Of a stretch of 64,000 nt of DNA, positions 3,429-51,023 are shown in pieces. The notes beneath the pieces were generated by a model. It saw nothing but the letters and a program-made list of their open reading frames with translations. It was not told the origin of the DNA and searched no databases. Each line of letters begins with the position of its first letter. Within the stretch, counting starts at the first letter, position 1. Both the position numbers and the translations under genes were made by a program. The DNA comes from Macrostomum lignano (taxonomy: Eukaryota): contig NIVC01000423.1 of assembly GCA_002269645.1 (NCBI GenBank), forward strand, positions 124,001 through 188,000. The letters are read 5' to 3'.

Positions 3429-4594
3429 TCTATATGTACAGAATCATCTGCATGACTCCTCGAAATTATAAGATAACCTTCCTCAGGACGCCTTCCTACG
3501 GATGGGATTATTGAAAAACGGCAAAAAATGGTGTCCACAAAACTGGGTCACGTGACACTAGGCGACTTTCTCTTGCCAGCTCCCCGAGTTCTCAGACTAT
3601 CCATATGCTAATTAGTGTTTTTTCGATCTTTTTTGGCTCACTTTTATGCGAGAATATTGAATGCAGAATGGATGTTAAGAGTTGAATAAGCTGACCTAGA
3701 AGGTGGAAAGGACCCCCGTTTTTATGCTGAGTCTTGTTCGAGCAACCAGTGGCTTGTCTTGTCTTTCTGGGCCATTTATAGACTCTCGAAGATGCCTCAC
3801 AGTGTTGATGCTGTGAGCGCGGCTCTTTCTTAAATGCAAATAGTTGAGACTATTGGTGTAAGCTGTAACTGAACTGAGTAGTTTCAAAATTCAATTCAAA
3901 TCGCCATTTATATGGATTCTTTTGGCCTTTGTTAAACTGTTCACTAACTCGGCCATGCATGCGGCCCCGCTCAAGGTTTGTGTGTCTTCTTTTTTTCTTT
4001 TTTCTTCTCTCTCTTGTCTCACAGCTTTTCTCCTCTCTCCCCTCCTCTCACCTCTTATCTCTCATCTCCCCTCTCTCTACTTTCTCCCCTCCTTTGTCCT
4101 CTCATCTCTCATCTTCACCCTCTCCTCTCTCCCTCTCTCCTCTCTCTTCTCCTCTCCTCTGGCCCGCGACCATGCGCTAGACTGTTCACCGACCCAGTCT
4201 ACCCAGTCTCTCGTTCTGGGCGTCCTTGTCCTCTGCGGGAGCAACAGACCGAACCGAACTGCACAACCTGACTAACCAACTAAATGGCCGAGTGATAAGA
4301 AGCAGCATTGATAGATAAACTGATTCGCAGGAAGCCACCAGCAGAAAAATCCATAGCCCGGAAGTGAATTCGAATCTTAAATATTAGATAAAGATCTATT
4401 CTAAAAAACAGGCAATGGATCCGATACACAAACTTGTAGCAATAATTTTTTATCCATCTTTCAAGAAATTTAAGCAAACCGGAAGTCAACAATTTTCGTG
4501 AAGTTTGTATTCAAAACTAGAATTTACTATATGAGATTAATGACTCAAGTTGGAGATTTGAAAATTGAGCCTTAAACCCGTCATCATCCAGACC

Positions 4595-6049: not shown

Positions 6050-6090
<41 letters not shown>

Positions 6091-6184
6091 GCATGCGGGT
6101 GTTGGCGGCGGCAACCGGCAGATGCACACGCATGGCAACGAGCTGGCGATGCCGATCGGACCGCCGAAAAAGAAGAGAACAAAG
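4595..6184 (+). CDS. pros: Prospero/PROX homeobox transcription factor, coding exon 1 (acidic, Pro/Gln/His-rich; ends KKKRTK)
   Basis: Long ORF with ATG at 4595; GT donor at 6185 splits the conserved KKKRTK|VTDTR motif. The true start or an upstream exon is uncertain (AG at 4590-4591). Confidence 0.85.
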
Positions 6185-6224
6185 GTGATTGGGGCTGAAT
6201 TGCCGACAGTGCACCGGTAGACGG

Positions 6225-23825: not shown

Positions 23826-24587
23826 GGGTCTCCCTAAAACACGCCCCGCACCGCCCTGCAGCGCGACACATTAAAGCAAATTGGACTATAACTGAAGACA
23901 CTTCAAAATGCGTTTTCTGTTAAGCTTCAAAGTTTTTATTAAATTAAGTTTTTTACTATGAAATATAAAATTCGGTGAATAATAAGTGATATTATTAATA
24001 ATATTAATGAAAAATAATAATTTAATAATGAAAACAAGAATATAAAAAATAATAACAATGTTTATAATATTAATTAAAGATATTTATTCCATTACTTGTA
24101 CAACAAATAGTTTTCTTTGCAATCAAATACTGCGTTGACAAAAAATGTTATAATGTGTAGCGGTTCGGGGCGGGGCGGTGCGTGTTGGGTCTCCCTAAAA
24201 CACGCCCCGCACCGCCCCGAACCGCTACACATTATAACATTTTTTGTCAATGCAGTATTTGATTGCAAAGAAAACTATTTGTTGTAAGAGTAATGGAATA
24301 AATATCTTTAATTATTATTATAAATATTGTCATAATTTTTTATATTCTCGTTTTCATTATTAAATTATATTATTATTATTTTATTAATATTATTATTAAT
24401 ATCACTTATTATTCACCGAATTTTATATTTCAAATTAAAGAAACTAAATTTAATAAAAACTTTAAAGCTTAACAGAAAACGCATTTTTTAGTGTCTTCAG
24501 TTATAGTCCAATTTGTTTTAATGTGTAGCGCTGCAGGGCGGTGCGGGGCGTGTTTTAGGGAGACCCGTGCGTGTTTTAGGGAGACCC
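23826..24587. mobile_element. Nested pair of ~380-bp MITEs (GGGTCTCCCTAAAACAC TIRs, Merlin-like) forming a long palindrome
   Basis: Outer 8-bp TSD cttctttt (23818-23825 and 24588-24595); inner copy 24187-24566 flanked by 9-bp TSD gtgcgtgtt (24178-24186 and 24567-24575). The Merlin call rests on GG-starting TIRs and 8-9 bp TSDs. Confidence 0.85.
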
Positions 24588-28314: not shown

Positions 28315-29454
28315 TGAAGTACAGTTGTTTTTGGTCTGGTTTCTAGTTTGTCTTGCCTGTTGTTGTCTAGAGGCCTTCAATAGAATTGCTGCCACTAGTG
28401 ATGTACAGGCTTCTTCGATGTTGACTTGCGATGGCCTAGTAGGTCTCCTGGAGCAAGGCGGTGACCTCTAGCTGCTTGTTTCTTAGAAAGGATACTTGTA
28501 GAGTAGGTAGTGCTGCCACCAGCTTGCTCGGATCTTGTCCTTCAGTGAGGGAGACTCCGGGCTGAGCAAAATAAACGAGACACGAGAACTCAGCACATCG
28601 TGCAGATTTGACAGTTCGTACCAGTGCACACCTCGTCAGCAGTCCTGTCGGGCTCAAGTGCGGGGATGAGGAACTGTGCTAGTCTCTATTAGTTTGGTTG
28701 GGATTTAGCACACTCGAGGACACACAATCGCAGATGGATCAGATATCAGATAGGTTGGCTAAGGCCTAGCGCAAGCTGCACTGGACTTCCAAGAGAGCAG
28801 TTATTAGAAGAGTTAATGCACAGGTAAATGAGAGGTTTCACAGAGGGTTGCCAAACAGCGGCACAAGAGGCCCGTACTTATAGGGTAGCGGATCAATTTC
28901 ACCATACCGTGCAACACCCCATTGCGCCAGAGTGCGCAAGGCCACTCTCACTGCCCCCAATCTGGCGTGATTCAGTTCTATTTTTAGAAACAGGCGCGGA
29001 TCCCTCAGTTTGAGAGGCAAGGACGCCATTCCTAATTTAGAGCCTGACACCCGAGATTGCACAAGGCAGTGCAAGAAAAGGACAGAGTGCCGGGGCACAT
29101 GATCCACTTCCGTACGGCCAGACAAAGAGTACAGCCAGAACTGGCTGGACTCGAGCTAAGAGAACGCAGCCACACAAAAAAAGGGGGGAAGGAGACAGAC
29201 AAAGAATGAAACAAGGACAGGCTGAGTGGAGAAGCTCAGACGCTGGGAACGCAAACGAACTGGAAAAAGGGGGGAACAATAGGGAGCACAGGCAGACAAA
29301 GGACAATGAGGGAGGGAGAGGGAGAGAGAGGGGTAGGAGAGGGAGAGAGAGAGAGAGGGAGGGAGAGCTGCGGCCAGCGGCAGCCAATAGCTCAGGAGGG
29401 TGCAGGGCACAGCTGACAAAGGGGGCACCTAACACTAAACTAGTGCTCACTTCA
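28315..29454 (-). repeat. 3' LTR of element A
   Basis: Direct repeat of 34911-36053 with scattered substitutions. Confidence 0.97.
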
Positions 29455-30040
29455 CTCTCCCCGTTCAAATGATGAGGCGGAGTGCAAGCGTAGCCGCTTT
29501 ATTTAAAACAAACAAGTTAAATTGTACTTTAACAAAATATAAACTTCGGTGTTAATTTGAGTTTAGGCAGCATGAAGATGGTAGAGATTGTACCTGAAGG
29601 ATAAACATAAAATGCATTAGTGTCGGATTAATACCAGCTGACCTGATTGAATGCAAAACACGGCAATGTTAAGTAGGCGAGTTTGCTGTTCAATATGCGG
29701 GCTGACGCCCTACTAAATGCCTATAATCATGATGGGGGTGTAGGCCCACTAATAGAGTAAAACATAGGATGCCTAAATAAGTTGGTGGGATGCTGGGAGT
29801 CAAATGGCAGAGCCCGGGGAGAAGGCACATGCAGCAAGAGGAGAAAAATAAAATAATGCAGTTGCGCGCAACTTGCGCTTGCATGGAGGGGGCCCTACCC
29901 TCTTTAGAGTTCAAAGTAAGGGCCAAGTTCAGCGTGGCATCAAGCAAAGAGGTGGGTGCATCCTGGCGACGGCCGACCCAGCAGCGAGCACACCTGTCAG
30001 CGTCAAGGCTACCAGATCGGGCGGCTCAGGGCCAGGTGGC

Positions 30041-33000
30041 CTAGGCGATGCGATTGGGCAAGTCCGGGACTCGGCTGGCCATCACACGGGCGATACGGCG
30101 GGCCACCACCCTAAGTATAGCCGGGTGTTCAGGATGGCGGACCGCGGCGCCGGCGATGTCCGCACCGTGGTCCATCGCGGCTTGGCGCTCGATGTCATCA
30201 AGAGCCCGCATCTCAGCCCAGATGGGCTCATTGAAGGAGGGCCATTTGCCATCTTGAGCTGCCGCCACAAAACAGCCGGCAAGATGCTTGGCGATGGTGT
30301 GGGCTAAGCTGATGGGCTCACTTGGTGTCGGCAGGAGGTCGGCGTCATGCAGGTTGGCTGCCTGGATGTATGCGTCGGCCCTGGATGGGCCCTCAGCCTG
30401 GGTGGCGGCATCGATGCAGCGGGGCTCAGCCGGGGAGTTGGGCGGGGCCTGCGGCAGAGCGAGCCGGAGCTCCTCGGCGAGGTCGCTCCAGCTATACGTA
30501 ATCTCGTTGGCGTCGCTGAATTCAGCCTCAGAGGTCTGGGTGGCCATGTTCACCAATGTCGGAGCCTTGTTGGCCCCGGTCACAATCAGCTTTGCGGCCG
30601 CTGCTACAGTCTTACCCGGGGGATCTTCCTGCGGCTGACTGGCGATGGGCTCCAGCGTCTCTGGAGTGGAAGGCCCAGCCGTAGGGCTGTCTGCACCAAA
30701 CGCGGCCGCAAAAGCGGCAAAGCTGGTTGGGCCTCTGGGTAGATGCGAGGGCGCGGCCGCCAATGGCCTTGCCGTGGTCACCGGATCAACAGGTCGTCGG
30801 GGATGTCGCTGCCGGTGGGCCTCTGGTCCCAGGCTGACCCGTGGGTCATCAGGACTCTGGTGGCTCGGCGAGGACTGCAAATGGCGGATCCGGGTAGCGG
30901 AGTCTTCGCCAGTGAGGTCAATGACCTCTGGCTGCAAGTTCTCCTGTCACTGGCGATGCCGTCCGCGTCCTCGGCGATGTCGCAGTCGCGAGGCGTCCCT
31001 TGACCGAGGCGTCTCGTTGTTACGGCGTCGGTCCGGCAGCGGCGATCGTTGATTGGGCGGCGGGGACGGGGACCGACTATACGGAGTCTGGCCGAGACGC
31101 AGTCTAGGGTATACGTGCTGGACCCAGGGAAGCCGGGGCGCACTTTCCCATTGGCTGGCAGCTGTGCCAATGGCGGGGCCAGCATCGGCGAGGCAGAACA
31201 GCTGTCTGCACTGCGCTGTCGCTCGCTCGTTGGAGCTTGTGCGGTCCGTTCGCTTTGGCGGGCGAGATGGGTGCATTTCTGCGCTGAAATGGTTGAAATT
31301 TTGTGCGCGCATGCGGGCGGTGCGACTAGCGTACGTTTGCGGCCTAGTATCACTAATGAGAAGCCTCTCTGGAGGCCTACGGTCCCTAGCTAGCCTACCT
31401 AAACCTACAGGCTCTACAGGCACTTCCACCGGAGTGGTGCATGGCAATGGTACACGAGACTGTACCGCAGAAAAATGCTCAGGGGGAGTAGGGACATGGA
31501 CGGGCGAAAAGGAAGCAGCAGGCACAGGTGCATTAGAAACAGGCTCACGCAAGTGGCATTCACCATACAGCACTGGCTCACGCCGAAGTGCACTTGCCTG
31601 GTTTGCTGGTGTCGTGTTCGGTCCACCTCCTGGCTGCACCTCCGGGATCGCCAGGAAGTACCACCAGAGAGCCGGCCTCACGTCATCATCCTTGTCGTCA
31701 TCGGGATCTTCAAGCTCTTCCTCGGGAACCGGTGGCAGGGTCGCGGGTCCTGCACCGTCAGGATCATCTGGCTGCCGTCTGCACTTCTTCGCCTTCTTGA
31801 CTTCGGGATCTGAAATCATCGCATAGTCCGCGTCAGGAACGTGGAGCAGGTTGCGGCGATGAACGACAAGTTCATCCCGTCAGGCTTGCGGATTGGGCAG
31901 TCTACGGCAAATCTTGTAGACCACCTCGCCTTTGGGTTCTACAACTTCGTAGAGTGCTTTGCGGGGTCGATGAAACTTCGCCGCCTCATCCGGTTTGAGC
32001 ACCGGGTTGTTGAGAAAAACCAAATCACCGGGCTTGAGCTTCTTGGCCTTCAGCAGGTTGGAGTAGTGCTCGTCTCGCAGTTGTTGATGGAGATGCAGAG
32101 GATCCTTATCTAGCTCGGTGGCATTGTCGAGACGGCGTTGGAAGTCCTTGACATACTCGGGCAAGTCGGCATACTCGGGCAGCTTCTTCAGCGCGTTGTC
32201 GATCGGCAGTCGGAAGTCACGGCCGAACACCAGGTAGTGGGGCGTGAATCCTGTCACCGGGTGTACACTGGAGCGGAGAGCCATCAGGCAGGCTGGAAGG
32301 AAGGTGTCCCAGTCATTGTGGTTTCGCTCGAGGAGGCAGGTGAGAATGCTCTTCAGCTGCTTGTTGAGGTTCTCGACTTGACCATTGGAAGCTGGTTTGT
32401 ACGGTGTTGTTGTAGTATGTTGAATGCCAAACAGGTTGCAGAACTTCTTGAAGGCGGAGCCGGTGAAGTTGGTGCCTTGATCAGTGTGTATCCAGCAGGG
32501 TACACCAAAGTCAGGGATCAAGCGCTCCTGCAAGATCTTGATGACAGTCTTGGCTTTCTGGTTCCTCATAGGATAGGCAAACGGGTACTTTGACGTCGCG
32601 TTGCACAAGGTCAATATGTAGCGGTTCCCACTCTTGCTCTTCTAGGCAATAGGGCCTACTACATCGCAATGTACTCTTCCTAGCACTTTGCGGACTGGGA
32701 AGCTTTGAACTGGAACTTCGTCTCGCCTTCGCGATTTGCTTTCGAGACAGGCACGGCATCTGCTGATAAAATTCTCAATGACACGGGCTAATCCGGGCCG
32801 CCAGAATCGTTCTCGCAGTCATTTCAGCGTTTTTGTCTGGCCTAGGTGTCCACACAGTGGCGAACTGTGGAGCTCCTGGAGCACCTGGGCATCGAGGGCT
32901 TCGTGCAGGAAAACCTTCGGGGACTGCTGGCCATCAGTCAGGTCGATCATCAGCAGGCCGTTGTCCTCTCGCAGATTCTCGTAATATCCGAGCAGGTTCC

Positions 33001-33370
33001 GCTGCTCCTTCGTCAGCCGCAACCGGGTGTCAAACTTGGGCTTTGGGGCTTTGTTCTTGACCAAGTTGAACACGTAACTGATAGCTCAGTCAGCGCACTG
33101 CGTGTCGACAAACTGTTGCCGCGTCATCGGCAACCTCAGAAAATCCGTGAGCACAGCGCGGCATGGCTGAGGGGTCATGACTCCCGCAGTCTCCGCTTCA
33201 GTGGCTCGCAGTTGATCACGCGACTCCGTCTTGTCAGCGTCAGGATTAGGTCGCTCCGAGGGACTTTGTCTCACAACGTCGGCGTACAATTGCTGATCTT
33301 GTTTTAAAGTTCTCATCATCGCTCTCTTGACAGGAATTTCCGCAGCTGGAGCAGTCCGCGACATCACCAA
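30041..33370 (-). pseudogene. Element A integrase plus long C-terminal Pol extension (interrupted by stops)
   Basis: LHSSPLCGHLG, HTDQG, QVENLN and KALYEVV motifs; in-frame stops near 32643 and 30947; extension carries EVIDLTG and NMATQTS. Confidence 0.9.
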
Positions 33371-34820
33371 ACTCCACCGGGATGATCACCTTACACGCAA
33401 GGGGTAGCTGCGTACCATCGTACATGGTCACGCAATCCGGGATAGCATGCGATATGATACACCAAGGCATCCGGCGTCTAATAGTGGCCCAGATTGATGA
33501 ACCAAGAAAGTTTTTCCTACTGCCGCTGTCTAGCAAGAAAGCGACCTCTCAACTCGCAACTCGACCTGTGACATATAGATCGGCCTCATGCACATGGATT
33601 TTTTGATCATCAGAGGTGTCCACGAAACCTCCGGGCTCCGCGTCTCTTACTGACGAGCAACTGTCGGACTGGGCACTGGCGCTTGCCCAGCCCACATCCT
33701 CTTCTTCTCGTGACCTCTCGGAGTCTGCCAAGTAGCCGGGGCTTGGGCTCTGCGGAGGGCGTTGCCGTGGGCGCTCTCCGTCTCGCCATTTCCCTGGTTC
33801 TGGCGTAACGGGCACTGTGCATTGCGATGACCAGGCTGACCGCAGCCATAGCAGATCATGGCTTTTGCAGGCAGACTTGTCTTCTGCTGCTGGTCACGCT
33901 GCACCAGGTTGTCTAGCATTTGCTGCTGTTTCTCTAGCAGATCAGTCAGAGCTAGGAGAGCTTGAGCGGTGGCGTCGGGCGTCGGGTCACCGTCGCACTC
34001 CCCATTCAGCATGCGAACCGGGGGTTGAGCAGAGCGCTGCGCCAGTTCTTTGGCGCCTTCCAGACGATGGAGTTCTCGAATAGTGGCCAGCAGATTGTTC
34101 GGGCGGACCCAATAGAGCCACTTGCGCAGATCTGGTGTTGTCCTGATGCCAGCTAGGAACTGATCAGCCAGCTCCCGCTCTCGATCCTCAGGGCATTCAA
34201 GGGTACGCTTGCTCTCCCAAGGTGTGCAGGGCATCAGCGTACTCTTCTGCTGACTCATTCTTGCCTTGCTGACGCCTCCTTAGAAGCTCTCGATACTCAT
34301 CAGCGCCACCGTGGCGCGCAAATCGCTCGATTAAACGCTGCTTAACCTCCTCGTAGCTGGCGAACCTTGGCAGATGCATGCTGAGCAGGGCCGGATACGC
34401 AGTAGACAGATCCAGACTCGCGATGAGGTGCTGCTTCATCTCAAACGGGTCGACGACTCGCTCCATCTCGCAACGCTGCTTGAACGCGGCAAGCCAGACA
34501 TGAATGTCCTGACTTGGAGTAAATTTAACAATCTTAATCTGTTTACTCACCGGTTGCTCTATTTGCTGCTGCAGAGCTGCCATCATGGTCCTCAGGTCCA
34601 ATGGTCTGACGGTCTGGCCAAGGTCATCCAAGCCTCGCAGAAGCTCATCTGGCGGGTCCTCGGACACCTCGCTTCGTACACTTTGCCTCGGCGCGGGCCT
34701 CTGACAGAAGTCACCGGTCGTTGCTGCTGCCGTGGCGGCGTCTGCTGCCGCAGGCCTCAAACTGCTGATGTGCTGATCCAGCCGGCTGCTATTCCGGCTC
34801 TTGTCTCGCTCGTTGAACAT
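33246..34820 (-). pseudogene. Element A gag and truncated aspartic protease
   Basis: MFNERD start at 34820; CYGCGQPGHRNAQC knuckle; LLDSGSRKNFL; stop plus frameshift near 34197; deletion junction at about 33360. Confidence 0.9.
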
Positions 34821-34910
34821 GCTGATCTCGTAGCTGACCGAAAAGTCATTCTCGAGAAAGGGCAGTTGGCTTGGGTGTTTCGAAGTCGGATCCCACCGCT
34901 GAGTCACCAA

Positions 34911-36053
34911 TGAAGTACAGTTGTTTTTGGTCTGGTTTCTAGTTTGTCTTGCCTGTTGTTGTCTAGAGGCCTTCAATAGAATCGCTGCCACCAGTGATGT
35001 ACAAGCTTCTTCGATGTTGACTCGAAATGGCCTGGTAGGTCTCCTGGAGCAAGGCGGTGACCTCTAGCTGCTTGTTTCTTAGAAAGGATACTTGTAGAGT
35101 AGGTAGTGCTGCCACCAGCTTGCTCGGATCTTGTCCTTCAGTGAGGGAGACTCCGGGCTGAGCAAAATAAACGAGACACGAGAACTCAGCACATCGTGCA
35201 GATTTGACAGTTCGTACCAGTGCACACCTCGTCAGCGGTCCTGCCGGGCTCAAGTGCGGGGATGAGGAACTGTGCTAGTCTCTGTTAGTCGGTTGGGATT
35301 TAGCACACTCGAGGACACACAATCGCAGATGGATCAGATATCAGATAGGTTGGCTAAGGCCTAGCACAAGCTGCACTGGACTTCCAAGAGAGCAGTTATT
35401 AGAAGAGTTAATGCACAGGTAAATGAGAGGTTTCACAGAGGGTTGCCAAACAGCGGCACAAGAGGCCCGTACTTATAGGGTAGCGGATCAATTTCACCAT
35501 ACCGTGCAACACCCCATTGTGCCAGAGTGCGCAAGGCCACTCTCACTGCCCCCAATCTGGCGTGATTCAGTTCTATTTTTAGAAACAGGCGCGGATCCCT
35601 CAGTTTGAGAGGCAAGGACGCCATTCCTAATTTAGAGCCTGACACCCGAGATTGCACAAGGCAGTGCAAGAAAAGGACAGAGTGCCGGGGCACGTGATCC
35701 GCTTCCGTACGGCCAGACAGAGAGTACAGCCAGAACTGGCTGGACTCGAGCTAAGAGAACGCAGCCACACAAAAAAAGGGGGGGAAGGAGACAGACAAGG
35801 AATGAAACAAGGACAGGCTGAGCGGAGAAGCTCAGACGCTGGGAACGCAAACAAACTGGAAAAAGGGGGAACAAAAGGGAGTGCAGGCAGACAAAGGACA
35901 ACGAGGGAGGGAGAGGGAGAGAGAGGGGCGGGAGAGGGAGTGAGAGAGGGAGAGAGGGAGGGAGAGCTGCGGCCAGCGGCAGCCAACAGCTCAGGAGGGC
36001 GCAGGGCACAGCTGACAAAGAGGGCACCTAACACTAAACTAGTGCTCACTTCA
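34911..36053 (-). repeat. 5' LTR of element A
   Basis: Direct repeat of 28315-29454, adjacent to the PBS. Confidence 0.97.
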
Positions 36054-41274: not shown

Positions 41275-42329
41275 TGTTGTACCTGTGGTTGTCCTGCTGT
41301 ACAGCGCAGTGACTTGGGCTCCGTCCTCTCACTTAGAAGCCTTCTTAACTTTAGTAGCGTAGGTAGTGCTGCCACCAGTTCCTTCAGGTCTCGGCCTTCG
41401 GTGAGGTGAGCTTCCCGTCGGAACGAAATAATGAAGTCAACGAACACAGCACGACGTGCAGATTTGCAGCTCAACGTATAAGGCGTCTCGTCAGCAGCAC
41501 CTGCCGGGCTTGGATGGTACAGGGAGGGCTGAGTTAGCCTCTCGTAGACTTGGATTGGTTTGGTCGGGTCTCAGTCGGAGCAATAGGAACAGAATCAATG
41601 TGCGCAAAGACTCGGACACTCGGGACTTAGTCACACGCGGACGTAGAACTCGAGGTTGAACAGAAGGAAGACTCCTTGACGGAAACAAGGGGGAGAGGGC
41701 TCCTATTTATAGCCGGGAAATTCCCACGCTCCAGACCTCGTGACTTGTTCTATTTTTAGAACTGACGTCACTCGAGAGTCTTGGGCAGGGTACAAGCGCG
41801 CGGAAGACCTCGTGACTTGTTCTATTTTTAGAACTGACGTCACTCGAGAGTCTTGGGCAGGGTACAAGCGCGCGGAAGACCTCGTGACTTGTTCTATTTT
41901 TAGAACTGACGTCACTTGAGGTCCCCGGCCAGAGTACACGCGGCTGTGACTCAGTTGCTATTTTTAGCAACATGAGTCACTCCTCTCCTTAGAGAAGGGA
42001 AGGGTCCGAAAGCACGTGACTCACCCGGTAAACAGGGCCAACGAGTGCAGTAAACATGTTTACTGCACTTTAAGACTCAAAGAACGCAAGAACTGTCATG
42101 TGACTTGCTCACAAGACAGGGAAAACGGGACGGGAGCGAAACAGAGACAGCCCACAGTCGAGAGACTGAGGGCTGAGAACGGAAACGCAACAGGGCGGAA
42201 AGGACACGGGGGCAACAGGCAAGCGAAAGGAGGGCGGGAAGCTGACCAGCGGCAGACAGCAACCCAAAGGGAGGGCGAGGGAACGGCTGACAAGGGTGAC
42301 GCCTAGCCATAAACTAGCGGCTCACTACA
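41275..42329 (-). repeat. 3' LTR of element B (TATA-like TATAAATA on minus at 41704-41711; 72-bp U3 repeat)
   Basis: Direct repeat of 50041-51023. Confidence 0.97.
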
Positions 42330-43047
42330 CTCTCCCCGTTCAAATAAAGAGGCGGAGTGAAGGCGGAGCGCGCCTTTATTTAAAAAGGTAAACTGCAGAA
42401 AATAAAATTTTGATTGGCAAAAAGGTGGTAACTTTGGCAGAATAGCAGAAGAGGGTGGGTCAGGCCCATGATTGCGACCCAAAACGCACGGCGGGGGCGC
42501 CTGCCCGCATGAATTCAGCGCCTAAATACCGGGGTGCTTTAAATAATAGCAGGGCCCGTGGGGGAGAAAGGGGATACCTGAGCAGGTATGGGGACGTAAA
42601 AATAGAGGCCGCAATCGGACTTAAACGCGCGGCTGGGCGAGAGCCGTAAAACTGCCCCATACGGTATTAGTGGAACACACCAAATGCAGACGGGGGGGCG
42701 CCAGCCCCAAGAAAGCAAGAAGCGCCTAAATACAAAGGGATGCGGGAGTTCTTGCAGAGCCCTGGGGAAGAAAAGCAAGGGACTGGCCAGAGGCCTTCAA
42801 AGGGTTATCATCAGCTTGAGCACAAATGGCAAATGCTGCTCACAAAAGGAGAAAATTAAATGGCGCGATTGCGCAAAATTCGCACAGTTGCTATGGGCGC
42901 TAAGTCAGTGGCGCCGAAGGGTTTCGCACTAGGCTGCTTCCTAAAATCAATCAGTCCGCCCTGCCGCAGTTCATTATGATCTCGGGCACTGCCGGTGTGC
43001 GCCCAGCAATTTGCCCAGCGATTAGCTGAGCTACAACGCGCGCTGTC

Positions 43048-46000
43048 TCAGGGTGCGGTGGTCGTCTGAGCGTGGGCTCGGCGAGTTGGTGAGTCCAAAC
43101 CCGTCAGGTCGATGCAGACGGGAGCGGCAGTTCGCGGTCGGCGCTGCCCCTTGGCTTCGGGCTTGGTGTCGGTCGTGGCGGGCTTGGGTCGCTCCCGGCT
43201 GGTTTCTGCGGCCTCGCGTGCTTGGTCGGCCTCGACCTGGCGTCGGATTGTCGCGATTCCTTGGGCGACAGCTTCCGTGCTGGCTGTTGACGCAGCCGCC
43301 TGTCCTCCTGATGAGGTTGGCGCTAGACGACGGACGACGGCCGGGTTCTCCGAGGGCGTCCCCTCGGCACCGGCGGTCCGGTTGTGCCCCGGTCGGCGTC
43401 GACGTCTGCGCCTCCTTGACGGGCGGTGGTTCTCCTCCGGCAGCGGCGTAGCTCCGCCGTCCTGGCGGAAGCCGAGCCGGAGCTGGGGAGGAATGCGATG
43501 AGCCTCTCGGTGCTCGCCAGATTCGAGCTGGCCGGCCGCTGCGCCGATCGGAGGCCCCGGTTCAACATAGTAACGGGGTCGATTGAGGCGAGCCTCAGTA
43601 GGCGGCGAGCGCTCAGTGCGCTTAGCAATACGGCGCGGTTGCATTTCTGCGCTGAAATTCGTTTTAGTTTGTGCGCGGATGCGGGCGGTGCGGCTAACGT
43701 AAGTTTTAGCCCTAGGATTAATAATCAGCCTCTCAGGCTGCCTACGGTTCCTAGCCGGCCTACCGGCATCTACAGTTCCTAATGACGCTTCCACCGGAGT
43801 GGTGCATAGCGACGGCCCAGGGGTCTGGACCACAGAAAAAGCAGCACTGGGGGCGGGAGCAGAAACGGGCGGAAAAGAAACAACAGGCGTAGACGCATCA
43901 AGAACAGGCTCATGCAAATGACATTCACCATACGGCACTGGCTCACGCCGAAGTGCACTTGCCTGGTTCGCTGGTGTCGTGACCGGTCCACCTCCTGGCT
44001 GCACCTCCGGGATCGCCAAAGGCCGGAAGTGCCATCGGAAGGCCGGCCTTGCGTCGTAGCCGTTATCATCATCGTCGTCGGGGTCGTCCTGGTCGTCCTC
44101 GGGAATCGGCGTCAGGGTCGCGGGTCCTGCGCCGTCGGGGACGTCGGGCGGTCGCCGACGCTTCTTCGGTTTGTCGACTTCAGGATCGGAAGTCCTCGTG
44201 TAATCGGCGTCAGGCACGAGTAGGAGGTTCCGGCGATGGACGATTAGTTCGTCTCGTCTGGCTCTCGGGTTGGGCAGTCTCCGTCGAATCTTGTAGACGA
44301 CCTCGCCCTTGGGCTCGACGACTTCGTATAGGGCTTTGCGAGGTCGATGAAACTTCGCCGCCTCATCCGGTTCGAGTACCGGGTTGTTGAGGAAGACCAG
44401 ATCGCCGGGTTGGAGCTTCTTGGCGACGGGCAGGTTCGAGTAGTGCTCGTCTCGCAGTTGCTGATGCAGATGCAGGCGCTCCTTGGCTAGCTCAGTCGCC
44501 TCGTCCAGGCGACGTTGGAAGTCCTTGACATAGTCGGGCAGGTTGGCATACTCGGGCAGCTTCTTTAGCGAGTTGTCGATCGGAAGTCGGAAGTCACGGC
44601 CGAACACCAGGTAGTGAGGCGTGAAACCTGTCACCGGGTGCACGCTGGAACGGAGAGCCATCAGACAAGCTGGGAGGAAGGTGTCCCAGTCGTTATGGTT
44701 GCGCTCGAGCAGACAGGTGAGGACACTCTTCAGCTGTTTGTTGAGGTTCTCGACTTGTCCGTTGGAAGCTGGATTGTACGGTGTTGTTGTCGTATGCCGA
44801 ATGCCAAACAGGTCGCAGAACTTCTTGAAGGCGGAGCCGGTGAAGTTGGTGCCTTGATCGGTGTGAATCCAGCATGGTACACCGAACTCGGGGATGAAGC
44901 GCTCCTGCAGAAGCTTGATGACTGTTTTGGCTTTCTGGTTTCTCATCGGGTAGGCGAATGGATACTTCGACGTCGCATCGCACAAGGTCAGGATGTAGCG
45001 GTTGCCGCTCTTGCTCTTCTGCGCGATTGGTCCTACTACATCACAGTGGATTCTACCCAGAACTTCGCAAACTGGGAAGCTCTGGACCGGAACTCTCTCT
45101 CGCCGTCGCGATTTACTTTCAAGGCAAGTGCGGCACTTACTGATGAAGGTCTTGGTAGCACGGGCTAATCCGGGTCTCCAGAACCGTTCTCGTAGCCGCA
45201 GTAACGTCTTCGTCTCGCCGAGGTGTCCACACAGTGGCGAACTGTGGAGCTCCTGGAGCACCTGGGCGTCAAGGGCCTCAGGCAGAACAACCTTTGGCGG
45301 CTGCTGGCCATCGGACAGGTCAATCAGCAGCAGGCCGTTGTCCTCCTGCAGGTTCTCGTAGTATCCGAGCAGGTTCCGCTGCTCCTTCTTCAGTCGCAAC
45401 CGGGCGTCGAACTCAGGCTTCGGGGCTTCGTTCTCGACCAAGTTGAGCACGTAGCTGATGGCTCGATCAGCGCGCTGGGCTTCAACGAACTGTTGGCGAG
45501 TCATCGGCAGCTTCAGAAAATCAGTGAGCACAGCGCGGCATGGCTGAGGGGTCCGGATTCCCGCAGTCTCCGCTTTAATGGCTCCAGGTCGATCACACGG
45601 CACCGTCTTGTCGGCGTCAGGATTAGGTCGCTCCGAGGGACTTTGTCTCACAACGTCGGCGTACGTCCGTTGATCTCGATTCGAAGTTCTCTTCATCGCT
45701 CTCAAGACAGAAAAATCCGCAGATGGAGCAGCGCGCATGCCTCCACTGCATAGCACAGGCGACTCTTGGCTGTAGGGCGGGACGCAACACGTGAAGCACG
45801 CTTCGTCGCAGGCAGCCGTAGCCGTCGGCTCAGTCGTCGTCAAAATTGGGTGAGTCTTCTCCTGCACTGGGCGGTGTCGCAAAGGGGGACTCGACTTTCC
45901 GCACAGGCGATGAGCAGCTGTCTGTCGGCCCGGGGGACAGAGCTTCGACCTTGCAGCTGGCGCGAGATTCTGGCCTCTGTCAACACGGCGAGAAATCCCA

Positions 46001-46734
46001 GCGAAAGGCTCGGAAGGGTTGTAGTTAAATTGCTTGCCTGGAGTTGCGTTGCGGGCCGTCATCAGAAGGGCTGCTGGTGCGGTGGCCTTTGAATCTTGGT
46101 CCGGGGGCGTCTCCAGAGTCCGAGACCTGTAGTCTTGGGCGTCGTCAAGGAGGTCTGTGTCCACAGTGGCCTCAAGGTCTTCGTCCAGGTTGGTCTCCAA
46201 ATTGCAGCGGGCGGCATGGGCATCGCGGCAGAGGGCTGTTGTCGCAGTGGCCTCTGAGTTGTCGTCCAGGCCGGTCTCCAGGCGTTGACTGCAGCGGTGG
46301 GCGTCGTGTTGGAAGGCTGCTGGCGCGGTGGCTTCCAGGTCTTCGTCCAGGTCAGTCTCGGCCTCCAAGCAGCGAGATTGGACTGTCTTCTGGAGGGCTG
46401 CTCTGGCAGTGGCCTCGGGTGTCAGGTCCGAATCCGGTTCCAGGTCGTGGTTGTCACCGGGTCGGGCTGCAGAACCAGGTTGCTCTAGCAGTCGGCCATG
46501 CTCGCAGGAGATCGGCGGCGCCTCCGGTCTTCTTGACAGGGCATCAGCGTTGGCGTGGTCCTTGCCTTTGCGGTGGTTGAGCTGGAAGCGGAACTCGCTT
46601 AGGCGTTCGATCCAGCGGCCTAAAATACCTGTGGCCTGAGTCTGGTTCAGTAACCACAGTAAGGCCCGATGATCGGATCGAACTTCAAACTTCTTGCCAA
46701 TTAAATAATGACGGAAATGTCGCATAGCGTCCAC
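43048..46734 (-). CDS. Element B Pol, part 2: RNase H C-terminus, long repetitive linker, integrase and C-terminal extension
   Basis: SDHRAL; HHCC (LHSSPLCGH...CRTC); IHCDVVGP / HTDQG / QVENLN DDE triad. Joined to part 1 across a 1-nt frameshift at about 46750. Confidence 0.93.
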   Translation of the reverse strand: MDAMRHFRHYLIGKKFEVRSDHRALLWLLNQTQATGILGRWIERLSEFRFQLNHRKGKDHANADALSRRPEAPPISCEHGRLLEQPGSAARPGDNHDLEPDSDLTPEATARAALQKTVQSRCLEAETDLDEDLEATAPAAFQHDAHRCSQRLETGLDDNSEATATTALCRDAHAARCNLETNLDEDLEATVDTDLLDDAQDYRSRTLETPPDQDSKATAPAALLMTARNATPGKQFNYNPSEPFAGISRRVDRGQNLAPAARSKLCPPGRQTAAHRLCGKSSPPLRHRPVQEKTHPILTTTEPTATAACDEACFTCCVPPYSQESPVLCSGGMRAAPSADFSVLRAMKRTSNRDQRTYADVVRQSPSERPNPDADKTVPCDRPGAIKAETAGIRTPQPCRAVLTDFLKLPMTRQQFVEAQRADRAISYVLNLVENEAPKPEFDARLRLKKEQRNLLGYYENLQEDNGLLLIDLSDGQQPPKVVLPEALDAQVLQELHSSPLCGHLGETKTLLRLRERFWRPGLARATKTFISKCRTCLESKSRRRERVPVQSFPVCEVLGRIHCDVVGPIAQKSKSGNRYILTLCDATSKYPFAYPMRNQKAKTVIKLLQERFIPEFGVPCWIHTDQGTNFTGSAFKKFCDLFGIRHTTTTPYNPASNGQVENLNKQLKSVLTCLLERNHNDWDTFLPACLMALRSSVHPVTGFTPHYLVFGRDFRLPIDNSLKKLPEYANLPDYVKDFQRRLDEATELAKERLHLHQQLRDEHYSNLPVAKKLQPGDLVFLNNPVLEPDEAAKFHRPRKALYEVVEPKGEVVYKIRRRLPNPRARRDELIVHRRNLLLVPDADYTRTSDPEVDKPKKRRRPPDVPDGAGPATLTPIPEDDQDDPDDDDDNGYDARPAFRWHFRPLAIPEVQPGGGPVTTPANQASALRREPVPYGECHLHEPVLDASTPVVSFPPVSAPAPSAAFSVVQTPGPSLCTTPVEASLGTVDAGRPARNRRQPERLIINPRAKTYVSRTARIRAQTKTNFSAEMQPRRIAKRTERSPPTEARLNRPRYYVEPGPPIGAAAGQLESGEHREAHRIPPQLRLGFRQDGGATPLPEENHRPSRRRRRRRRPGHNRTAGAEGTPSENPAVVRRLAPTSSGGQAAASTASTEAVAQGIATIRRQVEADQAREAAETSRERPKPATTDTKPEAKGQRRPRTAAPVCIDLTGLDSPTRRAHAQTTTAP

Positions 46735-48941
46735 AATTGCAAGCAGCTCTTTTTCGTGACCGTGTAGCGCTTCTCAGGATCGCGAAGTTTACGGCTAAAG
46801 AATGCAATTGGACGTTCGACGCCGTCGGATTGCAGTTGTCCAAGGCAAGCGCCTATTCGAATATCAGAGGCATCCGTGTCGAGGACAAACTTCACAGCAG
46901 GATCAGAATTAAATTCAGGCAGAGCGAGAACTTCAGTAGAACACAATTTCTTCTTCAAAGTGTCGAACGCTAACTGATGCTCGGGAGTCCAATGCTGCCG
47001 CAGGCTGCCAATGTCCTTTCGCGTCAGGGCATGCAGCGGCGCAGCCACTCCAGCGTAGCCGTCGACAAACTTGTGGTAGTAATTGGCGAGGCCTAGGAAT
47101 TGTCTCAGTTGAGTAACGGACTGTGGCACGGGCCAATCACGGATCTGCGCAATCTTGTCCTCACAGGTCTTCAGGCCGTCGGGAGTCACGACGTGACCTA
47201 AATAATGCAGCTCCTTGAGGAACAAATGACACTTCTTCGGTTTCACTTTGAGTTTGGCTGCGATGATGCGCTGGAGTACAGTTCGCAAGTTATCCAGCTG
47301 TTCCTCGAAAGTCACTGAGTGCACCACGATGTCGTCCATGTAGCCAAGCGCAGTCTTTGGCGTCAGGCCGTCCAGGAGCTTATTGATGCAACGCTGAAAG
47401 CTGCCGGGACTATCGTGGAGACCCATCGGTAGAACGTTAAAACAGAATTGGCCGCGGTCGATCACTGAGAATGCCGTCAAGTGCTGGTCGCATTCGCGCA
47501 GCGGGATTTGCCAGAATCCTTGAGCAAGGTCCAAGCTAGAATACCACTGAGCACCACGAAGCTTCGCGAAGGTTTCCTGGATGTGCGGGAGCGGATACGG
47601 GTGATACACACACCTGTCGTTGAGAGCTCTGAAGTCGTGGACTAGTCGGATGTTGCCGTCCTTCTTGGGCACGATGAGCATTGGCGAATTGTAGCTCGAG
47701 TAGGCAGGGCGAATGATGTGCTTCGCCAGCATCTCGTCTAGCAAGGCGTCGAGCTTGTCCTTCAGATGAGGCGGGATTCGGCGTGGTGGTAGCGCAACTG
47801 GTGTCCGGTCCTTCAAGATGATCTCGTGGGTCACCAGGTGAGTCAGGCCGGCGTCTAGCAGGTGCTTGGAGAAGGCCGCTTGACATTCAACTAGTAGATC
47901 TCGCACTCGCTGATGTTGTTCTTTGGACAATTCGCTGTTGATCTCGACTTCATCTAGCCATGCTGTGCTGGACTCTTCAGAGTTCTTCGGGAGGTGTCGC
48001 ACTTCAGGTTCGGGCGTCTCGCTCAAGTACATCAGGTCGGCAGTTCGGAGTGGCGTCGCAACACCAACACGGATACCGGCTTGCAGGAACACCTCGCTGT
48101 CGGCGGTGTTGACGACCTCAATGTAGCCGCGACCTTCAGGCATCGTCATCAGAGCAGGCGCTGCTTCCAGAGCGTTGCAGCTGGGATGCAGCCTCGACTT
48201 AACCAGCTCGACAATTGATGGCGATCCTCGATTCTCGGAATGGCCGTCATCCAATCTGACGGGAAGCAGCGCTGAACTTCTAGGCGGCAGGGTGCACTTC
48301 TCGGAGGTGTACACTCGGCAGGTTTGAAGCTCACGACGCGAATAACGAACAGGGATACACGTGCCATTGTTGAACGTTAGCATTCCTTGAGCGAAGTCCA
48401 AGTTCTGGCAGTGCTCTCGCATAAACGATACGCCAAGCAAATTTTCACAATCGGAGACCGTGACGAGGAATTCGGTGTCCGCGACGACATCACCAAACTC
48501 CACGGGGATGGTCACCTTACAAGCAAGTGGGAGCTGCGTCCCATCATACATAGTTACGCAATCGGGATTAGCATGCAATATAATACAACGAGGCATCCGA
48601 CGTCTAATAGCGGCCCAGGTTGACGAACCAAGAAAGTTTTTCCGGCTGCCGCTGTCTAGCAAGAAAGGGACCTCTCGACTCGCAACTCGACCTGTGACGT
48701 ACGGATCGGCCTCACGCGCATGGATTTTTTGATTCGGGGAGGTGTCCACGAAACCTCCGCACTCCGCGTCACTTACTGACGAGCGACTGTCGGACTGGGC
48801 ATTGGCGCCTGCACAGCCGACATCCTCTTCTTCTGGTGACCTCTCGGAGTCTGCCAAGTAGCCTGGGCTTGGACCTCGCGGAGGGCGGTGCCGTTGTCGC
48901 TCTCCGCCTGGCCGTTTCCCTGGTTCTGGCGCGTCGGGCAC
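46701..48941 (-). CDS. Element B Pol, part 1: protease, reverse transcriptase and RNase H
   Basis: FLLDSGS; LDLAQGFWQ; LPMGL; YMDD; LDTDAS. Confidence 0.97.
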   Translation of the reverse strand: MPDAPEPGKRPGGERQRHRPPRGPSPGYLADSERSPEEEDVGCAGANAQSDSRSSVSDAECGGFVDTSPNQKIHAREADPYVTGRVASREVPFLLDSGSRKNFLGSSTWAAIRRRMPRCIILHANPDCVTMYDGTQLPLACKVTIPVEFGDVVADTEFLVTVSDCENLLGVSFMREHCQNLDFAQGMLTFNNGTCIPVRYSRRELQTCRVYTSEKCTLPPRSSALLPVRLDDGHSENRGSPSIVELVKSRLHPSCNALEAAPALMTMPEGRGYIEVVNTADSEVFLQAGIRVGVATPLRTADLMYLSETPEPEVRHLPKNSEESSTAWLDEVEINSELSKEQHQRVRDLLVECQAAFSKHLLDAGLTHLVTHEIILKDRTPVALPPRRIPPHLKDKLDALLDEMLAKHIIRPAYSSYNSPMLIVPKKDGNIRLVHDFRALNDRCVYHPYPLPHIQETFAKLRGAQWYSSLDLAQGFWQIPLRECDQHLTAFSVIDRGQFCFNVLPMGLHDSPGSFQRCINKLLDGLTPKTALGYMDDIVVHSVTFEEQLDNLRTVLQRIIAAKLKVKPKKCHLFLKELHYLGHVVTPDGLKTCEDKIAQIRDWPVPQSVTQLRQFLGLANYYHKFVDGYAGVAAPLHALTRKDIGSLRQHWTPEHQLAFDTLKKKLCSTEVLALPEFNSDPAVKFVLDTDASDIRIGACLGQLQSDGVERPIAFFSRKLRDPEKRYTVTKKSCLQLWTLCDISVII

Positions 48942-49948
48942 TGGGTGTTGCGATGACCGGGCTGTCCGCAGCTATAGCAGATTATAGCTCTCTTTGGCGG
49001 GCTGGCTACCTGCTGTTGGTCACGCTGCACCAGGTGATCCAGCATTCGCTGCTGCTTCTCAATCAAGTCGGTTAGAGTCAGCAAGGCTTGGGCGGTGACG
49101 TCGGTTTTCGGGTCGCCGTCCTCCTCCCCGTCCAACATCCTAACCGGGGGTTGAGCGGTTCGTTGCGCCAATTCTTTGGCGCCTTCTAGTCGTCGTAGTT
49201 CTCGAATCGCAGCAAGAAGATTGTTCGGGCGAACCCAGTACAGCCGTTCACGCAAGTCTGGCGTCGTCCGGATACCAGCGAGAAATTGATCCGCAATCTC
49301 CTTCTCGCGGTCTTCAGGGTGCATCCGAGGATACGCACGTTCACCCAGAGTTCTCAGGGCGTCAGCAAACTCTTCTGCTGACTCATTCTTGCCTTGTTGA
49401 CGACGCCTCAACAGCTCTCTGTACTCATCAGCACCACCATGACGGGCAAATCGCTCAATCAGACGCTGCTTGACCTCCTCGTAGCTGGCGAAACGCGGAA
49501 GATTCATACTAAGCAAAGAAGGATATGCAGTAGCCAAATCAAGACTCGCGATGAGGTGTTGCTTCATCTCGAACGGGTCGACTATGCGCTCCATCTCGCA
49601 ACGCTGCTCGAACGCGGCAAGCCAGACATGAATGTCCTGACTTGGAGTAAACTTCACAATTTTAACTTGTTTACTCACGGGCCGCTCCATCTGCTGCTGC
49701 AGAGCTGCCATCATGGTCCTCACGTCCTGGTGCGTGATGTTCCGGCCGATGTTGTCCAGGCCTTGCAGAAGCTCGTCTGGCGGGTCGTCGGACACGTCGC
49801 TTCTCGCACCTTGCCTCGGCGTTGGCTGCTGACCAAAGTCGTTGATCGCTGCTGCTGCTGCGGCGGCTTCTGCTGCCGCAGGCCTCGAACTGCTGATGTG
49901 CTGATCCAGCCGGCTGCTGCACCGGCTCTCGTCTCGCTCGTTGAACAT
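48773..49948 (-). CDS. Element B Gag
   Basis: MFNERD start shared with element A; CYSCGQPGHRNTQC zinc knuckle; overlaps pol in the -1 frame at GGGAAAC. Confidence 0.92.
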   Translation of the reverse strand: MFNERDESRCSSRLDQHISSSRPAAAEAAAAAAAINDFGQQPTPRQGARSDVSDDPPDELLQGLDNIGRNITHQDVRTMMAALQQQMERPVSKQVKIVKFTPSQDIHVWLAAFEQRCEMERIVDPFEMKQHLIASLDLATAYPSLLSMNLPRFASYEEVKQRLIERFARHGGADEYRELLRRRQQGKNESAEEFADALRTLGERAYPRMHPEDREKEIADQFLAGIRTTPDLRERLYWVRPNNLLAAIRELRRLEGAKELAQRTAQPPVRMLDGEEDGDPKTDVTAQALLTLTDLIEKQQRMLDHLVQRDQQQVASPPKRAIICYSCGQPGHRNTQCPTRQNQGNGQAESDNGTALREVQAQATWQTPRGHQKKRMSAVQAPMPSPTVARQ

Positions 49949-50040
49949 GTTGAACTCGTCGTAGTCGCTGGCCGATGTCGTTCTCGAAAGAGCGGTTGGC
50001 TTGGGTGTGTCGTAGTCGGATCTCACCGCTGCGTCACCAG

Positions 50041-51023
50041 TGTTGTACCTGTGGTTGTCCTGCTGTACAGCGCAGTGACTTGGGCTCCGTCCTCTCACTT
50101 AGAAGCCTTCTTAACTTTAGTAGCGTAGGTAGTGCTGCCACCAGTTCCTTCAGGTCTCGGCCTTCGGTGAGGTGAGCTTCCCGTCGGAACGAAATAATGA
50201 AGTCAACGAACACAGCACGACGTGCAGATTTGCAGCTCAACGTATAAGGCGTCTCGTCAGCAGCACCTGCCGGGCTTGGATGGTACAGGGAGGGCTGAGT
50301 TAGCCTCTCGTAGACTTGGATTGGTTTGGTCGGGTCTCAGTCGGAGCAATAGGAACAGAATCAATGTGCGCAAAGACTCGGACACTCGGGACTTAGTCAC
50401 ACGCGGACGTAGAACTCGAGGTTGAACAGAAGGAAGACTCCTTGACGGAAACAAGGGGGAGAGGGCTCCTATTTATAGCCGGGAAATTCCCACGCTCCAG
50501 ACCTCGTGACTTGTTCTATTTTTAGAACTGACGTCACTCGAGAGTCTTGGGCAGGGTACAAGCGCGCGGAAGACCTCGTGACTTGTTCTATTTTTAGAAC
50601 TGACGTCACTTGAGGTCCCCGGCCAGAGTACACGCGGCTGTGACTCAGTTGCTATTTTTAGCAACATGAGTCACTCCTCTCCTTAGAGAAGGGAAGGGTC
50701 CGAAAGCACGTGACTCACCCGGTAAACAGGGCCAACGAGTGCAGTAAACATGTTTACTGCACTTTAAGACTCAAAGAACGCAAGAACTGTCATGTGACTT
50801 GCTCACAAGACAGGGAAAACGGGACGGGAGCGAAACAGAGACAGCCCACAGTCGAGAGACTGAGGGCTGAGAACGGAAACGCAACAGGGCGGAAAGGACA
50901 CGGGGGCAACAGGCAAGCGAAAGGAGGGCGGGAAGCTGACCAGCGGCAGACAGCAACCCAAAGGGAGGGCGAGGGAACGGCTGACAAGGGTGACGCCTAG
51001 CCATAAACTAGCGGCTCACTACA
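50041..51023 (-). repeat. 5' LTR of element B
   Basis: Direct repeat of 41275-42329 minus 72 bp. Confidence 0.97.

Follow-up and report, generated by a model that had tools for sequence, protein, structure and literature searches.

A third gene behind a spliced-leader acceptor in the env slot of Ty3/gypsy retrotransposons of Macrostomum lignano

We analysed a 64,000-nucleotide (nt) stretch of the genome of the flatworm Macrostomum lignano (the window; positions 124,001 to 188,000 of contig NIVC01000423.1, assembly GCA_002269645.1), which holds a decayed Ty3/gypsy retrotransposon, element A, that reads on in one frame behind its integrase, and a younger copy, element B. The original prediction, made from the letters of the window, had treated this continuation as an extension of Pol. 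We find that it is two things, an integrase tail followed by a separate third gene in the env slot; the motif-bearing part is not simply a Pol tail and constitutes an open reading frame (ORF) with its own splice acceptor, ATG and spliced leader. This gene, here called ORF3, is very probably expressed separately from Pol. It differs as a block between near-identical Pol backbones, and the helical domain at its end is under purifying selection. The features of element A that define the two parts are as follows.

31277..31861, minus strand: part 1, an ordinary acidic and proline-rich integrase tail of about 190 codons, which goes with the Pol backbone
31682-31723, minus strand: acidic patch in part 1
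31361..31396, minus strand: R..R....P.R[YL] motif, which closes the integrase in related Pol proteins
31274..31289, minus strand: acceptor 2 (exon from 31283) and ORF3 start codon (31276-31274), the spliced-leader addition site
30041..31276, minus strand: ORF3 (part 2, of cassette A1), in the Pol frame, about 410 codons long and broken here at 30947-30949

As had been predicted, the minus-strand frame from 31879 to 30041 is open but for a single TGA at 30947-30949, and all the motifs named were located in the sequence. Sister copies of element A are open at the position of the internal stop, and their frame is five codons longer at its end. When the last 159 residues were used as a query, 77 matches were obtained in the M. 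lignano genome (31–100% identity), many of them within frames of 900–2200 codons. We compared 20 stretches carrying element loci and then 10, 40 and 18 more. In thirteen of the first 20 loci, an uninterrupted frame of 545–668 residues covers the stretch from the end of the integrase up to and including the helical domain; the remaining loci are disrupted, have deletions or do not have the region. The loci sort onto three Pol backbones (A, B and C) and 13 cassette types of the ORF3 module, and further, unnamed intermediate types exist. Frameshifts in the module are common among copies, and type A2, whose copies seen are frameshifted, is excluded from the feature counts given below.

Part 1 follows the backbone, with DNA identities of 91–99% within backbones and 73–79% between them. 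Scoring of 33 related Pol proteins placed the tail motif in 16; fourteen of these stop 5–57 residues past it, and the other two run on for about 680 residues that begin and end with hydrophobic stretches. ORF3 begins 27–28 residues past the motif, and its ATG lies 7 nt after a YAG acceptor, at a site that is nearly invariant across backbones. The 15-letter acceptor and ATG pattern has 67 genomic matches; among the 40 examined, 30 have the helical domain downstream, two represent a known cassette and eight neither. The two long continuations (P0016 and P0021) are in frame and carry a signal-like and an anchor-like stretch, with no Pfam match to env. On the opposite strand, window positions 31053-31826 (plus) hold an antisense frame of 257 codons (325 in the sisters L031 and L032) with no Pfam match; an antisense frame of at least 300 codons over this region was not seen in other cassette types, and the frame is probably a by-product of GC-rich codons.

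RNA evidence was drawn from assembled contigs of seven different runs, whose RNA nature was guessed, and concerns cassette A1 or its close kin. In addition to acceptor 2, three splice sites of element A are involved.

34545..34551, minus strand: gag splice donor (exon ends 34551, intron starts GT), 90 codons past the gag ATG in sister copies
31809..31815, minus strand: acceptor 1 (exon from 31809), linked to the gag donor in run contigs from five studies
31592..31598, minus strand: GC-type splice donor in part 1 (exon ends 31598), with the intron lost exactly in four genomic copies

In runs X1 and X3, which belong to one study, a contig departs from the element exactly at acceptor 2 (L032:3260, window 31284). 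Together with the adjoining base, the 16 departing letters make up the final 17 nt of the 35-nt M. lignano spliced leader, as its sequence is given in PMC8629364. The junction of leader and acceptor 2 has no genomic match, and 60 element loci are without the leader piece. For both the leader junction and the gag junction described below we rejected an origin by deletion or retrocopying in the genome, as each has zero genomic matches; run X16, probably DNA, has neither junction among the matches listed, which leave aside two loose ends. Public gene models point to the same start: P0001 and P0092 represent two modules exactly from the ORF3 ATG, bypassing another ATG of the same frame that lies 11 codons upstream; the start of P0094 is two codons before the ORF3 ATG, at the first whole codon past the acceptor, and that of P0093 is one codon after it. 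The AUG of the leader itself opens a short out-of-frame ORF of 9–69 codons in 13 sequences, and a protein made from it was rejected given this length and its lack of conservation. As a separate matter, the last 17 nt of the leader occur 79 times in the genome (L061–L064 and 75 more); the four occurrences examined have no following GT donor, so that some of these leader-like copies are leader-derived insertions and not leader RNA genes.

The RNA of the element is also spliced in cis. A GT-AG joint from the gag donor (34551) to 31809 was present in four of four runs from four studies, and also appears as a loose end in X1 and X12. The gag donor is kept in backbones A and B; acceptor 1 is present in backbone A and type C1 and absent in B. 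The frame reached through this joint ends in a stop 43 codons on, with 407 nt and six ATGs still separating it from ORF3, so that the RNA would not yield ORF3 by plain scanning, and a fusion of Gag and ORF3 through the observed junction was rejected as out of frame. Such an RNA would encode about 90 Gag residues plus 43 residues of the other frame, with an SRRRR run, identically in three backbone-A copies, and is a possible source of a short Gag-derived regulator. The GC-AG splice was absent from the RNA contigs of the runs examined and is known from DNA copies that have lost the intron, which in three of them (two backbones, 311–314 nt) ended at acceptor 2 and in one at another acceptor. Since both these intron-loss copies and the leader junction end there, acceptor 2 serves in cis and in trans. 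Altogether, the element RNA has at least two donors (gag and GC) and three acceptors in use. As far as contigs and genomic copies allow, both the route of expression and the pattern of cassettes described further below are well supported.

Two kinds of element preserve the GC-AG splice in the genome. L048 and L112 (G000:C2766 and C1069) are non-autonomous elements of about 4.3 kb that consist of an LTR (long terminal repeat), the integrase end with the exact GC-AG intron loss, the ORF3 region and a second LTR; gag and most of pol are gone, and the frame of the ORF3 region closes after 158 codons. L111 and L118 (G000:C1341 and C3306) are full-length C2 copies in which the GC donor is fused exactly to acceptor 2 or to a pyrimidine-rich acceptor inside ORF3, and from their sequences we read them as inserted copies of spliced genomic RNA.

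The predicted ORF3 protein has 350–470 residues, a basic N-terminal third and an acidic remainder, is lysine-poor and has no membrane segment. In element A its features lie as follows.

30950..30982, minus strand: Arg-rich stretch in the basic N-terminal third
30902..30928, minus strand: EVIDLTGED, a SUMO-interacting motif (SIM) of SIMb type
30530..30550, minus strand: NMATQTS, the best-kept LC8-type motif (TQT anchor)
30395..30415, minus strand: IDAATQA, a second, weaker LC8-type motif; types C1 and C2 carry their TQT here
30359-30379, minus strand: ADAYIQA, not conserved outside the A1 type
30431..30499, minus strand: amphipathic helix W..L...L...AL followed by PP[NSP][ST]P, the latter in 12 of 12 modules
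30044..30313, minus strand: helical end domain of about 90 residues, under purifying selection, with no sequence or fold match
30089-30127, minus strand: HPAILRVVARRIA, in the helical end segment of element A

The front of the protein is disordered and rich in Arg, Ser and Pro (SP-rich), and the net charge of its first 120 residues is +9 to +18 in 12 of 12 modules. Eight of 13 sequences have a run of 8–9 Arg in 12 residues, and the other five have 4–6. A VIDLT-type SIM with an acidic flank and disordered context was found in 11 of the 13 module sequences, at two different positions; VIDLT is the core of the PIAS1 SIMb, as described in PMC3901395. An LC8-type motif is present in all 13 sequences and stands before or after the invariant PP[NSP][ST]P; 11 of them (type B6 and 10 of the 12 aligned modules) show the strict QT form, and the two B4 sequences have QA only. 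The rules for LC8 anchors laid out in PMC6607443 (TQT, a small residue at −2, a hydrogen-bonding residue at −4 and disordered context) fit the TQT at 30530, fit the TQA less well and disfavour ADAYIQA with its bulky −2 residue; according to the same source, many anchor-bearing peptides fail to bind LC8. Of the three LC8 motifs originally proposed, one is well kept (two in some types), and ADAYIQA drops out. In shuffles of each module the SIM pattern recurred at 0.25–0.6% and the strict LC8 pattern at 0.65–4%, figures that flatter the result because the patterns were defined after viewing the sequences and the modules are related. The amphipathic W..L...L helix is missing from types B2a and B2b, and an IGA.AGQ motif is kept in backbones A and B. 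Type B6 (L123, G000:C46) has no VIDLT; its W..LA.ELQAA helix is doubled, and it carries LC8-type motifs and SUMO-acceptor-like sites, two of each.

AlphaFold2 predicts six helices for the end domain (mean predicted local distance difference test score 84, predicted template modelling score 0.77), and local scores for the domain reach about 90. The view that the region is neither env nor a chromodomain holds: the highest 19-residue hydropathy in 12 modules is 0.79–1.68 and always falls in the C-terminal third, the N-terminus being basic, and none of the 12 modules has a Pfam chromo match, the predicted model being all-helical. None of the 12 modules matched any Pfam family at cut-off. A word-indexed homologue search returned two matches among 7,996 scored with query alignment A1 and two among 7,988 with A3, all labelled M. 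lignano, and a full hidden Markov model search of 1.84 billion representatives with alignment A2 returned three, none outside M. lignano; these searches took in public protein sets and not the genomes of other Macrostomum species. ESM Atlas features gave no usable match to the module, and Foldseek found no fold match among PDB and viral structures. VIA-align wide with a 179-residue model reached a best Z of 6.3, with a root-mean-square deviation of 5.3 over 101 residues, which is background for helical bundles. The absence of a fold match for the predicted domain is not proof of a new fold.

Ratios of non-synonymous to synonymous divergence (dN/dS) were computed by the pairwise Nei-Gojobori method for 14 pairs, with no site model. 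The helical domain gave 0.05–0.16 in six close pairs and 0.09–0.53 in five distant ones, and three pairs were saturated and not computable. The disordered front of ORF3 gave 0.25–0.60. Part 1 ranged over 0.22–0.90 overall, with few changes within backbones, and over 0.33–0.42 between backbones, and the integrase over 0–0.08 (two pairs were skipped for stops in the integrase and one in part 1). Of the outcomes that might have undone the original prediction, namely motifs not conserved, dN/dS near 1 or a match to a described domain, none was observed.

The third gene is far more diverse than the elements that carry it. For the pairs A1-A3, A1-A4, B1-B5, B1-B2b and C1-C2, synonymous divergence (dS) is 0.02–0.12 in the integrase and, where computable, 1.0–2.4 in the module, and the modules on these near-identical integrases are only 30–47% alike in protein. 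Identity by bins drops past the ORF3 ATG from 86–100% to mostly 33–83% and recovers to 78–95% in the 3' untranslated part or the LTR. The LTRs are 89–95% alike across very different cassettes (A1/A3, B1/B2b and C1/C2); co-segregation of LTR and cassette was rejected, as the LTRs go with the Pol backbone. Trees of the same 11 elements have a length of 0.38 for the integrase versus 7.35 for the domain, with poor support for the deep domain branches. Rapid positive selection as the source of this diversity was likewise rejected, as synonymous divergence exceeds non-synonymous divergence. The simplest reading of these sequence patterns, and a highly likely one, is that old cassettes have been exchanged between backbones by recombination at the conserved flanks.

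For the function of ORF3 we tentatively favour a regulator comparable to CERV of the Cer1 retrotransposon or to Rev: a third gene in the env slot, expressed from a leader-capped RNA, whose product would act in trans in the nucleus and let unspliced genomic RNA be kept or exported. The LTR transcript carries gag and pol and would have to stay whole as genome. Joining of the leader at acceptor 2 of a presumed precursor would give a capped message for ORF3 alone, like that of a downstream operon gene, which could be translated after scanning past the out-of-frame AUG of the leader. The basic Arg/Ser/Pro-rich N-terminal third would serve RNA binding and nuclear import, the VIDLT motif would dock on SUMO-modified nuclear proteins and LC8 would bring about dimerisation, with the helical domain as effector; cassettes may be exchanged by template switching. 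That ORF3 is a trans-acting nuclear protein is probable: the basic SP-rich front, the SIM and the LC8 motif point to the nucleus, and action in trans is suggested by a deletion shared between four insertions. This deletion of about 0.65 kb removes the LC8 motif and most of the helical domain from insertions with different flanks, element B included, one of which has an unbroken pol frame of 1822 codons. The four could equally have borrowed the fused form in trans. That the job is protecting or exporting genomic RNA is suggested by analogy and is the more tentative part; a regulator would be needed because the genomic RNA holds the used gag donor (four of four runs plus X12), the GC donor and three acceptors.

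Several observations weigh against this account. The leader junction was seen in two of seven runs, both from one study and both represented by contigs of guessed-RNA runs, contigs of X2, X8 and X12 cross acceptor 2 unspliced, and those of X4 give it little cover. The four gene models annotate the same copies, may rest on the same kind of RNA data and are not independent. The Arg run is weak (4–6 Arg in 12) in types B2a, B2b, C1 and C2, and no export signal or RNA response element was identified in ORF3 or the element, no predictor having been run for them. The frame from integrase to ORF3 is open in the long-ORF copies examined, which is needless for a purely separate gene. The SIM and LC8 motif go unexplained by the analogy with CERV, since the paper describing CERV is silent on SUMO and LC8.

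We rank an anti-silencing role second because SUMO and LC8 are parts of piRNA (PIWI-interacting RNA) silencing in flies. ORF3 made from its own capped RNA would bind SUMO-marked silencing complexes through the SIM, take up or use LC8 and loosen heterochromatin, and the many cassette types would be kept by frequency-dependent conflict with the host. Counts of 11/13 for the SIM and 13/13 for the LC8-type motif are in line with such a role, as are the coexistence of thirteen deep cassette types and the CpG-type decay of element A, which fits methylation of these elements. The SIM-less type B6 has two [IVLMF]KxE SUMO-acceptor sites; four such sites occur in the 13 sequences versus 0.63 expected, two of the four in near-identical sequences. 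LC8/Cut-up dimerises the Drosophila piRNA silencing complex, according to the parts of PMC7861614 and PMC7919418 that bear on it. No module pair has a dN/dS near or above 1 (range 0.05–0.60), so that an arms race leaves no sign at the level of pairs. To our knowledge, Panoramix is restricted to flies, and we know of no use of LC8 in flatworm silencing. We regard counter-silencing as possible but less likely than the CERV/Rev-like role. Its fullest version, an operon-like retrotransposon in which host trans-splicing frees an effector that counters silencing, has a new helical fold and hijacks SUMO and LC8, and in which at least a dozen ancient alleles are swapped under balancing selection, is likewise possible and doubtful.

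Rather unlikely, and third in rank because the fusion frame is kept, is a module that works as the tail of the integrase, guiding the pre-integration complex along the cytoskeleton or towards chromatin rich in SUMO, with the separate RNA as a by-product or second use. In 13 of 20 loci the integrase frame stays open across the module, part 1 is under purifying selection between backbones (dN/dS 0.33–0.42), and the SIM and LC8-type motifs are real and kept. However, the leader is added and gene models begin at the module's own ATG, and integrases at dS 0.02–0.12 bear modules that are 30–47% alike in protein. Four insertions lack the LC8 motif and most of the helical domain, and in L111 and L118 the pol frame leaves the module after the GC-AG intron loss, although complementation in trans may have made up for either defect. 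By eye, no common target sequence is apparent in nine 5' flanks. Trafficking or chromatin targeting, as originally proposed, is possible because the fusion to integrase is open in intact copies, and is not our first choice; a cis role tethered to the integrase is not required, because copies without the LC8 motif and most of the helical domain inserted at four places. It is improbable that ORF3 activates its own LTR in the manner of the LTR activators Tat, Tax and foamy-virus Tas, using an acidic amphipathic helix as activation domain. An acidic stretch and the W..L...L helix do precede PP[NS]SP, and the N-terminal third is basic and the message separate and early, but the LTRs track the Pol backbone and not the cassette (89–95% alike), B2a and B2b lack the helix, and the fold searches gave no DNA-binding match. 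A read-through region that decays or evolves neutrally, with motifs due to chance, is hardly credible: element A is broken, GC-rich DNA favours long open frames and many copies are frameshifted in the module, yet the helical-domain dN/dS of 0.05–0.16 in six close pairs contradicts it, as do a confident predicted fold and motifs kept amid saturated synonymous sites.

The two elements of the window have the following further features.

28315..36053, minus strand: element A, decayed Ty3/gypsy copy with backbone A and cassette A1; 4-bp target duplication, protease (PR), reverse transcriptase (RT) and RNase H missing
34911-36053 and 28315-29454, minus strand: LTRs of element A, 96.9% alike
41275..51023, minus strand: element B, younger copy with backbone B and cassette B5; 4-bp target duplication
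49678, 43963 and near 46750, minus strand: gag donor, GC donor and pol frameshift, respectively, of element B
42951..43657, minus strand: acceptor 2 (exon from 43651), ORF3 ATG (43644) and ORF3 remnant of element B, with the deletion of about 0.65 kb at 43075-43089

The PR-RT-RNase H block of element A is gone with about 2.75 kb at 33355/33359, and its integrase has extra stops. Over 1236 nt (30041-31276), its ORF3 differs from that of the sister L032 at 71 positions, of which 52 are C>T or G>A and 42 are CpG-type transitions, a pattern that we take as a sign of methylation-type decay of this copy. Element B has the Pfam domain order gag-PR-RT-RNase H-integrase and near-identical LTRs. It does carry VCIDLTG (~43099-43119) and, in another frame, HPETARVVAQLIA (~43017-43055), as had been noted; the earlier view of it as a diverged form gives way to that of a B5 cassette copy whose deletion is common to three more insertions. 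Ty3/gypsy hallmarks are present (TG...CA LTRs, primer site, polypurine tract and 4-bp target duplications), and a ranking of matches hints at a placement in the Gmr1/Osvaldo cluster. The primer site just inside the 5' LTR (L052–L060) resembles what we take to be the complement of the tRNA-Leu 3' end and differs among copies by a small insertion. The LTRs of element B contain a 72-nt tandem unit (41733-41920 and 50499-50636), with 2.6 copies in one LTR and 1.9 in the other. A linker of 429–437 residues joins RNase H to the integrase zinc finger in L032, L034, L039, L041–L045 and element B (~45260-46545, minus strand); its repeated acidic units and Cys/His-rich patch are kept in all three backbones, and it measures about 191 residues in the related Pol proteins P0005 and P0006. 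Elsewhere in the window, positions 23826-24566 hold nested long inverted repeats (arms of 129–198 nt, 89–95% complementary) of a fold-back element or one like a miniature inverted-repeat transposable element, and a 552-codon open frame at 4562-6220 (plus strand), with no Pfam match at cut-off, enters a 21-nt satellite.

Accessory proteins of animal LTR retrotransposons are little known, and in the literature searched CERV is the sole worked-out regulator. ORF3 represents a second, apparently unrelated accessory family, in a model flatworm with RNA interference and transgenics, so that its job is testable. Leader addition inside the element sets ORF3 expression against survival of the genomic RNA, since releasing ORF3 by this splice would also sever the genome. 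The cassette alleles, saturated at synonymous sites and flanked by integrases and LTRs that barely differ, also offer a natural series on what keeps alleles, and long in-frame Pol tails in other trans-splicing animals may be hidden genes. In the literature searched, which lacked most subscription papers, we found neither a description of the ORF3 family nor one of a leader joined ahead of a separate ORF within an LTR element. The LTR elements of M. lignano are classified in PMC12801592, whose main text, as seen, mentions neither splicing nor additional ORFs; its five supplements gave no match to the acceptor motif, which line breaks or gaps could hide.

Comparison with CERV is the closest. According to the accounts of Cer1 in PMC10309623 and PMC3315495 on which we draw, CERV is made from a spliced RNA whose last exon follows a TTTCAG acceptor and is read in the polyprotein frame, and export of genomic RNA depends on CERV. 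Both cases join a gypsy-type element, a novel lineage-restricted protein and a spliced sub-genomic RNA with a post-integrase exon that is in the polyprotein frame and preceded by TTTCAG; both use a gag donor, the spliced RNA can carry a host leader (SL1 in Cer1), and the genomic RNA must skip good splice sites. CERV, however, joins Gag exons in frame to the 3' exon and has the leader at the 5' end of a five-exon RNA, whereas here the junctions seen are out of frame with ORF3, the one gag junction observed running into a stop after 43 codons, and the leader is added inside the element before the ORF3 ATG. Compared by description, CERV has H, M and alpha/beta G domains, whereas ORF3 combines a largely disordered chain with a single small domain made of helices only, a SIM and an LC8-type motif. 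Cassette exchange did not appear in the parts of the CERV literature examined.

The non-env ORF3s of bdelloid rotifers, as far as PMC5408684 describes them, likewise place a non-env gene in the env slot, are gained and lost as modules across pol lineages and typically have spliced messages. They are known enzymes or membrane proteins (GDSL esterase, DEDDy exonuclease, transmembrane and coiled-coil ORFs), in contrast to the M. lignano ORF3, which has no known homologue, is in frame with Pol and forms 13 alleles of one family; trans-splicing of the bdelloid genes was not seen in that account. The env-like tails of P0016 and P0021 and the errantivirus env (PMC13524379, which in the parts seen deals with env-bearing elements) occupy the same slot after the integrase tail motif, in frame with Pol. 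These tails differ in their signal- and anchor-like hydrophobic stretches, identified from hydropathy with no Pfam env match, whereas ORF3 is basic and disordered and has none above 1.68. With retroviral Rev and Rex, the latter a Rev-type export protein, ORF3 shares a spliced-RNA origin, an Arg-rich stretch, weak in some types, and an intron-containing genomic RNA in need of export, but it is three to four times longer and has a SIM and LC8-type motifs. In M. lignano operons, downstream genes are freed by the same 35-nt leader at an AG acceptor, as reported in the portions of PMC8629364 considered, with the difference that here the putative operon would be a retrotransposon RNA that must also survive uncut as genome. 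From its sequence, ORF3 would thus belong to a kind of accessory gene already known from CERV and the bdelloid non-env ORF3s, with an apparently unrelated protein family.

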